A DNA stretch of 64,000 nt from Escherichia coli (lineage in GTDB: Bacteria > Pseudomonadota > Gammaproteobacteria > Enterobacterales > Enterobacteriaceae): NCBI RefSeq assembly GCF_050920415.1, contig NZ_CP169309.1; one strand, 5' to 3'. The notes beneath the pieces were generated by a model. The model was not told the DNA's origin and did not search any database. It was given only the letters and a program-made list of their open reading frames with translations. Of the stretch, positions 38,254 to 47,331 are shown piece by piece. The position numbers were made by a program, and so were the translations under genes. The number at the start of each line of letters is the position of its first letter. Position 1 is the first letter of the stretch.

Positions 38254-39504
38254 GTGCTTACCGATACAAAATTAAAAAACCTCAAGCCGCAGGACAAACT
38301 GTACAAGGTCTCCGATCGTGACGGGCTGTATGTAGCTGTGCTTACGTCAGGCACGGTCTCGTTTCGCTATGACTACCGTATCAACGGTCGCCGCGAAACA
38401 CTGGTAATCGGGCAGTATGGGCGTGACGGTATCAGCCTGGCAGAAGCGCGAGAAGAACTGATTGCTGCAAAGAAGCTGCTTAAAGCAGGCCAGTCGCCGG
38501 CTGCGGCTAAACGTGACGGTATCAAAAAGATTCGTGGTGCCGAGACGTTTGCGGTACATACCGACAGTTATATGAAACACGTCATCCTGGCTGACAGTAC
38601 CCGCGCAATGAAGCAGGCGGTGATCGACCGTGACATACTTCCGGTTCTTGGCAACAAAATGATGGCTGAAATTACCACATCGATGGTTCGTGATTTGTGT
38701 GACCGGATTGTCGAACGCGGTGGTCGGGCAACAGCAGTACAGGCCAGGGAGATCATCAGCAGCGTATACCGTCACGCCAATGACCGTGGTCATGGTTTGT
38801 TTAATCCTGCGGCTGACATTAAACCTTCGTCTATCGCCATATTTAAACCACGAGAGCGAACACTGACACCAGAAGAAATTGGCCTGTTCTTCCGCACGCT
38901 GGATGCCATTGGTGCTATGGGCACTATGAAAATGGCTTTAAAGCTGGTGCTTATCACTATGGTTCGTAAAGGCGAATTCACCAATGCAACGTGGGATGAA
39001 ATAGATTTTAAAAAATGGACATGGACAATTCCTTCAGACCGCATGAAGGGAAGCCGGGCGCACGTTATTTACCTGCCTAAACAGGCACAGGATATATTGG
39101 TTGGGTTGCAGATGTGCGCTGGTGGAAGTGAATATCTGGTTCCTGGTCGTTACAATTTCCGGAAGCCATTATCTAATGCCGCGCTGAACTCTCTGATCGA
39201 CAGAACGGTGAAAATAATAAATGAAGATGGTGAGCATATTCAGGGCTTCACCGTACACGATATGCGCCGTACAGCCAGTACGTTGTTGCATGAGGCTGGT
39301 TATCCTTCAGACTGGATTGAAAAGGCTCTGGCACATGAGCAGAAAGGTGTGCGCGCCGTATATAACAAAGCGGAATACGCCAGACAGCGCGCCTACATGT
39401 TGCAGCAGTGGGCCGATATGATTGATTCCTGGATTAACGGGGAGCATACGGATCTGATTCCGTTCTCCCCGTCGAAGTTTGAGAAGTGGATGGCGGGGGA
39501 ATAA
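38254..39504 (+). CDS. int: Tyrosine integrase (P4-type, N-terminal arm-binding domain)
   Basis: 416 aa, GTG start; N-terminal DUF4102-like region and C-terminal catalytic region (HDMRRTASTLL...ALAHE...Y). Confidence 0.85.
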   Translation: MLTDTKLKNLKPQDKLYKVSDRDGLYVAVLTSGTVSFRYDYRINGRRETLVIGQYGRDGISLAEAREELIAAKKLLKAGQSPAAAKRDGIKKIRGAETFAVHTDSYMKHVILADSTRAMKQAVIDRDILPVLGNKMMAEITTSMVRDLCDRIVERGGRATAVQAREIISSVYRHANDRGHGLFNPAADIKPSSIAIFKPRERTLTPEEIGLFFRTLDAIGAMGTMKMALKLVLITMVRKGEFTNATWDEIDFKKWTWTIPSDRMKGSRAHVIYLPKQAQDILVGLQMCAGGSEYLVPGRYNFRKPLSNAALNSLIDRTVKIINEDGEHIQGFTVHDMRRTASTLLHEAGYPSDWIEKALAHEQKGVRAVYNKAEYARQRAYMLQQWADMIDSWINGEHTDLIPFSPSKFEKWMAGE

Positions 39505-44397: not shown

Positions 44398-44982
44398 TTA
44401 TTGTTTGTTTTTTTCGTTCTGGTTGATGACAAATTCAATGTAACTTTCGATCTTTGCCTTCTCTGTTTCAGGTAACAATGCGTAGCGCGAGCGGTCATAG
44501 TTGATAGTTGCAGGGTCATGCGGATGAATCAGTAGTTCATATCCGTGACGCCCGAATGCAGATGCAACATTCTCCAGGGTGGAAATGGAAACGCTGACCT
44601 CATTGTTTAACAGGCGGCTGATTGTCACCTGGGCGACGCCGGATGCGCGGTGAAGTTTTCCCTGTGTTGAAAGGTCGCGGCTTTCGCTCATCCAGCGTTC
44701 CAGGTTGTGAGCCGCCAGCTGACCAATGTCGCTTGGGCCGACAGGCTGAAAACCTTCCTGAGAAAGCGAGCGATCGATATCAAGCCAGTTACGGGGTTTA
44801 TTGGCGGCAGCTTCAATTTTTCGCGCAACCTGGTCGCCGATAACCTTCTTGCCAAGAGCCCAGCGGTTTACCAGATTTGCCTGAGTTCCAAGTTTTTCTG
44901 CCATCCGCGTCTGAACACCATTGAATTCACGGTCGATCAAGTCGTTGAGATTTTGCCTGCGGACGTCCTGGATACTTTTCAT
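44398..44982 (-). CDS. Phage CI-like repressor (HTH, Phage_CI_repr-type)
   Basis: 194 aa; N-terminal HTH (QTRMAEKLGTQANLVNRWALGKK) and second HTH-like segment; divergent from a Cro-like gene across an operator-rich spacer. Confidence 0.55.
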   Translation of the reverse strand: MKSIQDVRRQNLNDLIDREFNGVQTRMAEKLGTQANLVNRWALGKKVIGDQVARKIEAAANKPRNWLDIDRSLSQEGFQPVGPSDIGQLAAHNLERWMSESRDLSTQGKLHRASGVAQVTISRLLNNEVSVSISTLENVASAFGRHGYELLIHPHDPATINYDRSRYALLPETEKAKIESYIEFVINQNEKNKQ

Positions 44983-45037
44983 TTTCTGGAAAATCGCCTC
45001 ATATATGAATCAGTAGATGATTCAATTTAAAGCAATA

Positions 45038-45100
45038 TTACCCAACAGGTAAATGCACCTCATAGGTAACTATCCTTGATTTTTGTTACCTTATGGGTGA
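45038..45100. promoter_or_regulatory. Divergent switch region with three operator-like palindromes (45038-45052, 45055-45069, 45086-45100)
   Basis: TTACCCAACAGGTAA, GCACCTCATAGGTAA, TTACCTTATGGGTGA; arrangement reminiscent of OR1-OR3 between cI and cro. Confidence 0.5.
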
Positions 45101-45136
45101 ATATTTATTATCTGAAATAAATATCAGGCAATAGCT

Positions 45137-45367
45137 ATGAGCGATAACGGACATTTCGATTTCAAAAAGCACTGGCTTGCACTTACTCCGGATGAGCGTG
45201 AAGCCTTCGCACAGGAAGCCGGAACGACGAGTCACTATATCCAGACTCACTTAACAGGTAAGCGAAAAATGCCAGGTAAAGTATTGATGAATGGGCTTTT
45301 TAAAGCCTGTAAAACAAGACAATGGCTGCGCTCAAAAGCAGAACTGGCATACTTCTTCTACTCATGA
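45137..45367 (+). CDS. Cro-like / YdaS-type HTH regulator
   Basis: 76 aa; HTH segment FAQEAGTTSHYIQTHLTGKRKMPGKVL; divergent from the CI-like gene. Confidence 0.5.
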   Translation: MSDNGHFDFKKHWLALTPDEREAFAQEAGTTSHYIQTHLTGKRKMPGKVLMNGLFKACKTRQWLRSKAELAYFFYS

Positions 45368-45388
45368 TATCCAGCTACAACCCTCTGT

Positions 45389-45412
45389 AGACCGCCATCC
45401 GGCGGTCTTTTC
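45389..45412 (+). terminator. Hairpin agaccgcc-atcc-ggcggtct followed by tttt
   Basis: Read directly after the cro-like gene stop. Confidence 0.5.
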
Positions 45413-45422
45413 ATATCTATTC

Positions 45423-45437
45423 GTACCTTAAAGGTAA
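45423..45437. promoter_or_regulatory. Palindromic operator-like site GTACCTTAAAGGTAA
   Basis: TTACCT-N3-AGGTAA family, 1 mismatch; upstream of the 45518 gene. Confidence 0.4.
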
Positions 45438-45517
45438 TAAAAAACCAAATCTGGTTGATCTTTTTTTTGTGTCAGCACAAAATAACCGTAATCCCAATAC
45501 TAATAACAGGGCTTACC

Positions 45518-45718
45518 ATGGAAATCATTACACGTATTGATGCCGCAAAGCGCGGACTTAAACGCTACTACACCGGAAAACCATGTAAGCACGGACATGA
45601 CAGTGAACGCTGGGTTTACAACGGACACTGTGTTGAGTGCACCATGGAATCAAACCGTCGCATTAGGGCAGAGATTAAGCAGATCATGATTAATTCCTCC
45701 CCACAACATTCAAGCTGA
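45518..45718 (+). CDS. Small putative zinc-binding phage protein (66 aa)
   Basis: ATG at 45518 within ORF 45455-45718; CKHGH...CVEC motif. Confidence 0.4.
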   Translation: MEIITRIDAAKRGLKRYYTGKPCKHGHDSERWVYNGHCVECTMESNRRIRAEIKQIMINSSPQHSS

Positions 45719-45733
45719 TAGCGGAGATTAATC

Positions 45734-46549
45734 ATGAGCAGACATGCAACAGATTGGGCCTGGGAGACAGATCCAGGCAGCTCATCATTAAAGCTCATAC
45801 TGCTCTCGATGGCTGACAGAGCCGATGAATATAACCTCTGCTACCCCAGCATAGAACGCCTCGTTAAAGACACTTGCCTGAATAAAAAAACCGTGCAGGC
45901 CGGGCTTATATCGCTCATGAAAATGGGGCTTATTTCAGATACCGGAGAGAGAAAGGGAGCGACGAAAAGAGTGCGGGTTTTCTCTCTTAATATAACCAAA
46001 AACGGGAACATTAAAGGCAACCGGGAAGGGAGTAATGAACCCGAAAACGGAAATGTTACCGAAAACGGGAATATACCCAAAAACGGGATGTTGAATGATC
46101 CCAAAAACGGGATGTTGAATGATCCCAAAAACGGGATCCAGAACCAGTCATATAACCAGTCATTTAACCAAGAGAGGGGGAGCAGGACAAAAACCGGGGA
46201 TTCTGTGCCTCATGACCCCGGCGCAAACAACGCCGTGATGAATAACTTTGTTCCTCCTGGTGGGCCAGGGCAATTAGGCAAATTTGTCATGCATGAACAA
46301 TGGCAACCATCAGATGACTTTCTTCGGAAAAGCTCATTGCAGGGAATCTACCTGGACAGTCTGCCAACGGCACAGGAACTTGCAGAGTTCAGAATTTACT
46401 GGATGGCTGAGGGTAAGGCATACCATCAGGCACAGTGGGAGCAGAAGCTGGCAAGGCGGCTGCAGATTAGCAGACAGAAGCAATCAACATTACCTGATAA
46501 CAACGTTCCGCACTGGAACAGCCCTGAAGCGTGGGAGGATTTCTTGTGA
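45734..46549 (+). CDS. Replication initiator, lambda O-like (N-terminal winged-helix domain, internal repeat linker, DnaT-like C-terminus)
   Basis: 271 aa; immediately upstream of and overlapping a clear lambda P homolog; coding sequence contains iteron-like repeats. Confidence 0.65.
   Translation: MSRHATDWAWETDPGSSSLKLILLSMADRADEYNLCYPSIERLVKDTCLNKKTVQAGLISLMKMGLISDTGERKGATKRVRVFSLNITKNGNIKGNREGSNEPENGNVTENGNIPKNGMLNDPKNGMLNDPKNGIQNQSYNQSFNQERGSRTKTGDSVPHDPGANNAVMNNFVPPGGPGQLGKFVMHEQWQPSDDFLRKSSLQGIYLDSLPTAQELAEFRIYWMAEGKAYHQAQWEQKLARRLQISRQKQSTLPDNNVPHWNSPEAWEDFL
45998..46136. repeat. Iteron-like array: six copies of (c/g)aaaacggga including a perfect 24-bp tandem duplication (46078-46101 = 46102-46125); candidate origin inside the O-like gene
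   Basis: Copies at 45998, 46043, 46061, 46078, 46102, 46126, followed by aaccagtcat x2 at 46142-46165. Confidence 0.55.
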
Positions 46550-47331
46550 ACAACGTTTTTACCGCGATACAAAACCGTGACGGAGAAGCCCTTTCTCGCA
46601 TGTCAGGTTATGAGCATCAATACGTCAACAATGACAATGTGGTGAACATGTCAGCAGAGAGGCTTGTTGATGCCCTTTTCAAACAGCTGAAACAACTGTT
46701 TCCGGCGGCAGTAGTAACCAACCTGAAGACGCCAGAGCAGGAAGTTGCTGCAAAACAGCAGTGGATTGCTGCGTTTGCCGAAGGTGGGATCCGAACCCGT
46801 GAACAGGTTTCTGCTGGTATGCGCCACGCTCGCGCCAGTGAGTCTCCGTTCTGGCCGTCGCCAGGGCAATTCATCAAGTGGTGTAAAGACAGCAAGATGG
46901 TTCTTGGCGTCACCATTGACGATGTGATGGCGGAGTTTCACCGGTACAGCAAGGAAAAAAGTTTATATCCTGGTGGTCCCGAAAGATTCCCGTGGCGACA
47001 TCCGGTTATGTACTGGGTCGTATGTGATACCCGCCGTGCAATGTATCAGCGCCAGCTTAGCGAGATTGAGGTTGAGAAACACGCGCGCAGGCTGCTCGAT
47101 GATTGGGCGAAAAAGGTGGCTTCCGGACAGCAGATACCCGATCCGGTGATCAGCATACAGGCAAAGCCAGAGCCCATGAGTACGCCTCCGGACACAGGGA
47201 GAGACGTTTACCATCCACCAGGGCGAAGTTTCGGGTGTATGCCTAACGCCGCCACCCTGGGGGGAATAACACCGGCGCAGTGGCTAATGGAGGAATACAG
47301 GCGGGGAAAGGCGGCAGGATTTATCAAGTAA
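46546..47331 (+). CDS. Replication protein P (lambda P-like helicase loader)
   Basis: Matches lambda P core (QWIAAFAEGGIRTREQVSAGMRHARASESPFWPSPGQFIKWCK vs lambda QWVLAFRENGITTMEQVNAGMRVARRQNRPFLPSPGQFVAWCR); GTG at 46546 with RBS gggagga, overlapping the O-like stop. Confidence 0.8.
   Translation: MNNVFTAIQNRDGEALSRMSGYEHQYVNNDNVVNMSAERLVDALFKQLKQLFPAAVVTNLKTPEQEVAAKQQWIAAFAEGGIRTREQVSAGMRHARASESPFWPSPGQFIKWCKDSKMVLGVTIDDVMAEFHRYSKEKSLYPGGPERFPWRHPVMYWVVCDTRRAMYQRQLSEIEVEKHARRLLDDWAKKVASGQQIPDPVISIQAKPEPMSTPPDTGRDVYHPPGRSFGCMPNAATLGGITPAQWLMEEYRRGKAAGFIK

Follow-up and report, generated by a model that had tools for sequence, protein, structure and literature searches.

The early region of a phage genome integrated in Escherichia coli carries a group of short direct repeats in the middle of its replication initiator gene, which raises the question of whether these repeats mark the place where the phage starts to replicate. 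We analysed a 64-kb stretch of E. coli DNA (NZ_CP169309.1), referred to here as the window, and unless a relative is named all coordinates are positions in it. We consider it probable that a temperate phage of the phiV10-like (Uetakevirus) type has its replication origin at positions 45992-46177, in the linker-coding part of its own initiator gene.

The early region is of the phiV10/Uetakevirus type and has the same gene order as phiV10 (Table 1). Its initiator gene was found in 423 of 5426 complete E. coli genomes, is 96-99% identical to the genes of phiV10 and other Uetakevirus phages, and has a 100% identical counterpart in E. coli SCU-116. In the public annotation of relatives the neighbouring loader gene starts at a GTG at 46546, overlapping the stop codon of the initiator. 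Rightward transcription from the predicted control region (44398-45408) would cross the candidate origin. The strong terminator-like hairpin at the end of this control region sits between the cro/cII-like gene and a small ORF preceding the initiator, at the same place where a terminator is annotated in phiV10, and looks like a tR1-style checkpoint 5' of the replication genes.

Table 1. Coordinates of the control region, the replication genes and the repeats of the candidate origin in the window.
Feature	Position	Strand	Description
CI-like repressor gene	44398-44982	-	upstream control region
Promoter-like site	45083-45111	+	consensus match only
cro/cII-like gene	45137-45367	+	upstream control region
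Terminator-like hairpin	45389-45408	+	consensus match only; 8-bp stem, 6 G-C pairs, T-run
Replication initiator gene, 271 aa	45734-46549	+	ORF with winged-helix N-domain, repeat-bearing linker and DnaT-like C-domain
Iteron 1	45992-46009	+	ATAACC-AAAAAC-GGGAAC; 45 bp upstream of the remaining iterons
Iteron 2, degenerate	46037-46054	+	GAACCC-GAAAAC-GGAAAT; GGTA at this place in most relatives
Iteron 3	46055-46072	+	GTTACC-GAAAAC-GGGAAT
Iteron 4	46073-46090	+	ATACCC-AAAAAC-GGGATG; 24-bp register begins
Iteron 5	46097-46114	+	GATCCC-AAAAAC-GGGATG; GATC present
Iteron 6	46121-46138	+	GATCCC-AAAAAC-GGGATC; perfect 6-bp inverted arms; two GATC sites
Three 12-bp AACC units	46141-46177	+	(G)AACCAGTCATAT / AACCAGTCATTT / AACCAAGAGAGG; candidate unwinding or single-strand-binding element
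Lambda-P-family helicase loader gene	46531-47331	+	Pfam Phage_lambda_P E 2.1e-56; phrog_109 'P-like helicase loader'

The initiator matched Pfam HTH_36 at residues 18-67 (E 3.9e-10) and the DnaT DNA-binding domain at residues 184-252 (E 2e-15), with a further weak match to DnaD_N, and fell into phrog_1032 of PHROGs ('replication initiation protein', E 3.6e-108). With both domains present it belongs to the HTH_36 + DnaT-C phage initiators, which RefSeq names 'DnaT-like ssDNA-binding domain-containing protein'. An AlphaFold model of residues 1-99, built from a 39-sequence alignment, had a pLDDT of 90 and a winged-helix topology. The linker between the domains, of which the iterons occupy residues about 87-148, was predicted to be disordered from residue 91 onwards (pLDDT <50). 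A fold search of the PDB with the N-domain model returned generic winged-helix DNA binders and no match at E <0.001 (a staphylococcal Rep-DNA complex, 5kbj, was among the matches at E 0.04), and a sequence search of the PDB with the N-domain profile gave nothing under E 0.2. Because the fold matches were all generic winged-helix proteins, we do not name a specific structural family for this domain. Sequence homology of the initiator to lambda O was considered and is not claimed: there was no Phage_rep_O match in Pfam, and hhalign of the N-domain profile against lambda O gave a probability of 2.5%, the aligned stretch being the winged helix just before the lambda iterons. An earlier note on this DNA, made from the sequence, had proposed a lambda-like origin inside an O-like gene; the comparison with relatives and the lambda-style module around the iterons (repressor, cro-like gene, initiator and lambda-P-family loader) speak for the origin, but the gene is O-like in its organisation only.

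Direct reading of the sequence at 45990-46180 confirmed an iteron array in the initiator linker. The core AAAACGGGA occurs in five exact copies within the 64-kb window, all on the plus strand (starts 45999, 46062, 46080, 46104 and 46128), with a chance expectation of 0.65; none of 100 shuffles reached five. The earlier note had counted six repeats, and there are indeed six copies, but the exact core is present in five of them only and the sixth, at 46044, is the variant AAAACGGAA. These six same-strand iterons span 45992-46138, and their starts are spaced, from iteron 1 to iteron 6, by 45, 18, 18, 24 and 24 bp, every one of which is divisible by 3, so that each iteron is read in frame and encodes an xNG peptide. 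Tandem Repeats Finder reported an 18-bp unit (x2.8, 46039-46088), a 24-bp unit (x2.6, 100% identity, 46076-46137) and a 12-bp unit AACCAGTCATAT (x2.4, 46142-46170). The perfect 24-bp duplication described in the earlier note was likewise found: the 24-mer caaaaacgggatgttgaatgatcc lies at 46078-46101 with its second copy at 46102-46125, and encodes KNGMLNDP twice inside ...IPKNGMLNDPKNGMLNDPKNGIQNQSYNQSFNQ... There was no second cluster of the iteron motif elsewhere in the 64-kb window and no DnaA box with up to one mismatch at 45400-46900.

The iterons are direct repeats with an internal dyad (CCC/GGG arms, up to GATCCC/GGGATC); with at least three such repeats required, six were found between the N- and C-domains. 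The dyad symmetry is partial in iterons 1-4. Mirrored arm positions amount to 5 of 7 in iterons 5 and 3 and are fewer in the others except for the palindromic iteron 6. The initiator gene has four GATC (Dam) sites, of which three (46097, 46121 and 46135) fall in the arms of iterons 5 and 6 and may link the array to control by Dam and SeqA; many PPompW-type relatives have AAAGATCTAAACCCC just 3' of the array in place of these GATC-bearing arms. On the minus strand, at 46084-46103 and 46108-46127, the right arm of an iteron pairs with the left arm of its neighbour to give a terminator-like hairpin, after which comes a T-run complementary to the A-tract; these hairpins are probably a by-product of the dyad arms. 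Just 5' of iteron 1 we further observed a perfect 9-bp inverted repeat (AGAGAGAAA at 45946-45954 and TTTCTCTCT at 45979-45987, with 24 nt between the arms), which falls in the codons of the conserved GERKG..VRVF wing and is at about chance level in this purine-rich stretch.

Among close relatives the number of repeats is polymorphic. Among phages and prophages that share 93-99% identity with the window, BP9 and IHE3034 (one 24-bp unit fewer) and Ec-RL2-1X (one 18-bp unit fewer) had five iterons. The window itself, phiV10, EC.W1-9 and PAS61 had six, EC361 and 2009C_3996 had seven, and PS_131_S11 had eight, including one AAAATGGGA copy. phiV10 further has three AACCAGTCAT units as compared with two. 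Because the iteron number ranges from five to eight among close relatives, the array evidently expands and contracts, and the unit numbers change in multiples of 3. From the 426 E. coli records a sample was drawn at even intervals, and 44 of its 55 full-length matches had the 816-bp form of the gene, which is that of the window; six of the remaining genes were 792 bp long and the others 798, 810, 834 or 864 bp. The window's layout was also common to 74 of the 80 closest IMG/VR loci. The earlier note had held the 24-bp duplication to be recent and had asked how iteron number compares in related prophages. The number does vary, but the doubling is not private to the window: it is the commonest allele in both of these samples and is present in phiV10, EC.W1-9 and PAS61, which speaks against a recent event. 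More distant relatives have perfectly identical 24-bp runs of their own, three units in Edwardsiella phage GF-2 (locus L012, 1801-1872) and five in Vibrio phage Her (locus L013, 1859-1978), and the units differ between phages. This points to recurrent slippage or homogenisation and not to a single recent step. One of the close relatives, the BP9 record (PP488543.1, 132.4-138.2 kb), is a 138-kb sequence classed as Vequintavirus with a phiV10-like early region at its right end (exonuclease VIII gene, HTH protein, initiator, P-type replication protein and ea22), and could have arisen by chimeric assembly with a prophage.

Among 61 distinct 816-bp alleles 98 of the 816 sites were variable. Gene positions 345-440, which hold iterons 4-6 and the 12-mers, contained two variable sites, both singletons, and the most variable stretch among close alleles was the 45-bp gap between iterons 1 and 2.

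Since all spacings in the window are multiples of 3, the window alone cannot separate a constraint on the DNA from one on the peptide, and distant relatives are informative here. By the N-domain alone, relatives at 37-53% identity were found in enterobacterial PPompW phages, Edwardsiella GF-2, Vibrio phage Her, Acinetobacter AP22 and Burkholderia Bcep176. Each of these five has direct repeats of the same core inside the ORF just past the winged helix, namely ACACCCAAAAACGG (PPompW), AATGATCCCAAAATTGGGA (GF-2), CCCGAAAACGGTAC (Her), AATGAACCCAAA (AP22) and AACAGTCCCAA (Bcep176), the last recurring at 22-bp steps. We assembled 130 distinct sequences from the window, these five phages and 159 loci from two IMG/VR scans after deduplication, and nearly all of these N-domain relatives had repeats of the CC(N)AAAA(N)GG type at the same place. 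The earlier note had pointed to relatives with such repeats elsewhere as evidence against its reading; in every N-domain clade sampled the repeats keep their position. An unbiased k-mer search found three to seven repeats in nearly every locus, beginning about 280-300 nt into the gene and spaced by 17, 18, 22, 24, 26 or 30 bp. With a strict core pattern, at least three copies were found in the linker of 90 of the 130 relatives, at a density of 12.3/kb in the linker as compared with 1.67/kb in the remainder of the gene; clades with variant cores (e.g. GTCCCAACAATGG) are missed by this pattern, and in them repeats were present by the k-mer method. Spacings of 17, 22, 23 and 26 bp were common among the strict cores, and in 88 of the 90 loci with at least three strict cores two or three reading frames were used. 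That the core is read in two or three frames across relatives argues for a constraint on the DNA and not on the peptide. Judged from these sequences the repeated unit is constrained as DNA, and the window with its spacings in multiples of 3 is the unusual case.

Consensus cores of the clades showed a dyad around an A/T-rich centre, with an arm sequence that differed by clade. Palindromic consensuses were ACAGTCCC-AAAAAC-GGGACTGT, ATACCCCC-AAAAAT-GGGGGTAT and GGTACC-AAAATT-GGTACC, and a further clade had GACACCC-AAAAAC-GGGTGCC. Mirror covariation of left and right arms exceeded a between-locus control at three positions (0.61 vs 0.40, 0.70 vs 0.63 and 0.44 vs 0.34) and lay under it at the outermost position (0.20, control 0.26). 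Because arm covariation was only modestly above the control, we cite the clade consensus palindromes alone for the dyad. A possible covariation between the recognition-helix residue (after the K-T-V/I motif) and the iteron arms was dropped, as the regular expression did not give a dependable arm register and the clades cannot be treated as independent. With the same limits of register and independence, it is suggestive that clades with L, M or F at this residue often have GT before CC and that clades with Q, G, K, H or N never do.

A second element lies next to the array. In most clades the motif GAAYC is present in two to four copies with a 12-13 nt period directly past the last iteron, and the 12-mers of the window are the local form of it. 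Examples are GAACCAGTCATTA, GAACCAGTCATA and GAACCAAG in Her, the GGAACAGTAG repeats in Bcep176, and GAACCAGTCATAT, AACCAGTCATTT and AACCAAGAGAGG in the window; GAAYC stretches in relatives lie at 1867-1914 in GF-2, at about 1965-2010 in Her and at 1942-1977 in locus L015. At least two copies 10-14 nt apart were present in 99 of 126 loci, and GAAYC density was 29.7/kb in the 80 nt past the array vs 2.4/kb elsewhere in the gene, a difference of about 12 times. The 40-bp duplex covering the window's 12-mers (46135-46174) has 60% A+T and a dG of -48.7, which places it between the 95th (-49.9) and 99th (-46.2) percentiles of 40-bp duplex stability in the window. Two other 40-bp duplexes in the gene are less stable than this one, and the lowest stability of all falls at 45977-46016 on the other side, around iteron 1, where the arm at 45979-45987 of the inverted repeat described above also lies. 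Across the family, mean A+T content after the array was 58% vs about 50% in the flanks, and it was above both flanks in 87 of 104 loci. The GAAYC repeats might be a sequence-specific unwinding element whose single strands are recognised either by the loader or by the initiator (or its DnaT-like C-domain), an idea we put forward tentatively and would not call probable.

The repeats are associated with one part of the initiator. In GF-2 (L012, 1501-2343) an N-domain, iterons and 12-mers of the window's type are joined to a lambda-O-like C-domain that includes the lambda-like GAGAATTCTGACGAATCCTCAGA. In Salmonella phage SPN1S, of the epsilon15 type (locus L016, 1030-1845), the C-domain is DnaT-like, the N-domain is unrelated and no P gene adjoins the initiator; iteron-type repeats were absent from this relative by C-domain only. 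Comparison of GF-2, the window and SPN1S places the junction of the N/C-domain swap just past the repeat region. On these sequences the repeats travel with the N-domain and not with the C-domain, and the N-domain, the iterons and the 12-mers move as one module while the C-domain is exchanged.

Other functions of the repeats have to be weighed against that of an origin. They could serve the protein as a flexible N/G/P-rich linker of KNGMLNDP repeats that grows by slippage, with no function of the DNA. The in-frame xNG peptides of the window, the changes of unit number in multiples of 3 in close relatives and the predicted disorder of the linker would all be expected from this, but the use of two or three frames in nearly all relatives with at least three cores, with spacings of 17, 22, 23 and 26 bp, would not be; neither is the dyad symmetry of the core required by a peptide, and the GAAYC period is often 13 nt. 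The frame analysis, a comparison of sequences, largely rules this explanation out, and we regard it as extremely improbable. Slightly less improbable, and still very unlikely in our view, is that the repeats are sites of another host or phage DNA-binding protein, for example a recombination hotspot for the exchange of initiator modules. The swap junction just past the repeats would suit such a role, and the GATC sites in iterons 5 and 6 mean that Dam or SeqA could act there. Against it, the arm sequence changes by clade together with the initiator N-domain, which fits a cognate phage binder better than a conserved host factor, and no DNA-binding gene is consistently linked to the repeats, the neighbours differing across loci L011-L016.

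The repeats could also be binding sites through which the initiator or another phage protein controls expression or copy number (autoregulation, handcuffing), the origin itself lying elsewhere. Plasmid iterons act in both initiation and control, and the region adjoining the array is only weakly A+T-rich. The two extra iterons of Stx phages are poorly bound by O (PMC7466680), so not every repeat need initiate. The layout in the window nevertheless matches the proven origin of lambda in its place, in the order of iterons and then a second element, and in the P-type loader; the motif forms this one cluster in the whole window; and a second element conserved in most of the loci compared would not be needed by a simple operator. 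We regard control alone as unlikely. Control alone and binding by another protein are both unlikely, and less economical than the origin reading.

If 45992-46177 is the origin, the N-terminal winged-helix domain would bind the six iterons, probably as dimers, each iteron being a CCC-N6-GGG dyad around an A-tract. The bound array, A-tracts included, would bend or wrap into a nucleoprotein complex, and the bent complex would destabilise and open the adjoining 12-bp AACC/GAAYC repeats. The DnaT-like C-domain and the neighbouring lambda-P-like protein might then bring in the host DnaB helicase, and rightward transcription from the cro-side promoter would cross the origin as in lambda. Binding of the iterons by the window's initiator, unwinding at the 12-mers and origin activity are thus proposed by analogy with lambda.

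We found no published description, in the searchable literature, of iterons for phiV10/epsilon15 or for HTH_36/DnaT initiators, or of the iteron sequence itself. The phiV10 RefSeq record has annotated terminators and no origin or iteron feature, whereas the lambda record has its iterons. Our analysis provides a concrete candidate origin for phiV10/Uetakevirus-type prophages, and also for the broad family of HTH_36-type initiators in Edwardsiella, Vibrio, Acinetobacter, Burkholderia and enterobacterial phages. The kind of element is classical and its arrangement expected, so that it involves no new mechanism and should not surprise a specialist in phage replication; the conserved GAAYC repeats offer a small new clue to the way in which such origins might be opened.

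The closest known arrangement is that of lambda, whose RefSeq record has four iterons at 39034-39118 inside O (ATCCCTCAAAACGAGGGA and variants, all of the TCCCTCAAAACGAGGGA type), followed by an A-rich tract. According to published work (PMC7466680), lambdoid origins combine iterons with an AT-rich tract midway along O, the iteron number being four in lambda and six in Stx phages; the same work describes an intrinsic bend in the iterons and the binding of O to A/T-rich single strands. In the window as in lambda, the repeats lie inside the initiator gene straight after the DNA-binding domain, a second element (in the window only modestly A+T-rich) adjoins them, the P-family loader gene comes next, and a control region of the repressor/cro type lies upstream. 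The dyad arms around an A-tract are also alike (TCCCTC-AAAAC-GAGGGA in lambda, GATCCC-AAAAAC-GGGATC in the window). The window differs from lambda in that its N-domain is HTH_36 and not Phage_rep_O and its C-domain is DnaT-like and not lambda-O-like. Its iterons number six, their inner spacer is 6 bp instead of about 5 and their TCCC-to-GGGA distance is 3 bp shorter, and its 12-bp AACC/GAAYC repeats with about 60% A+T replace the long A-rich tract of lambda. The lambda arrangement of an origin in the initiator linker would thus extend to an initiator without detectable sequence similarity to O. The Stx phages P27 and 933W resemble the window in having six iterons and an iteron number that varies between related phages (PMC7466680), as it does between five and eight in relatives of the window. 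They differ in having true lambda O proteins, lambda-type iterons, and binding and replication that have been tested, whereas the window's family is known from sequence.

Comparison can also be made with plasmid and chromosomal origins. The window's initiator is unlike plasmid initiators of the Rep_3 or RepA-pi type in that it is without a Rep_3 domain in Pfam. Plasmid Rep proteins of the Rep_3 type have winged helices in tandem, and the iterons that belong to them are usually found outside the rep gene. RK2 oriV contains 13-mers whose single strands are bound by TrfA, and oriC has its own 13-mers and the DnaA-trios. The window resembles RK2 and oriC in that the iterons adjoin short direct repeats, about 12-13 nt long, at the place where opening would be expected, the role of GAAYC being putative. 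If the GAAYC repeats do act in this way, they would correspond, in a phage, to the RK2 13-mers or to the DnaA-trios of bacteria, as an element so far undescribed for lambdoid origins.
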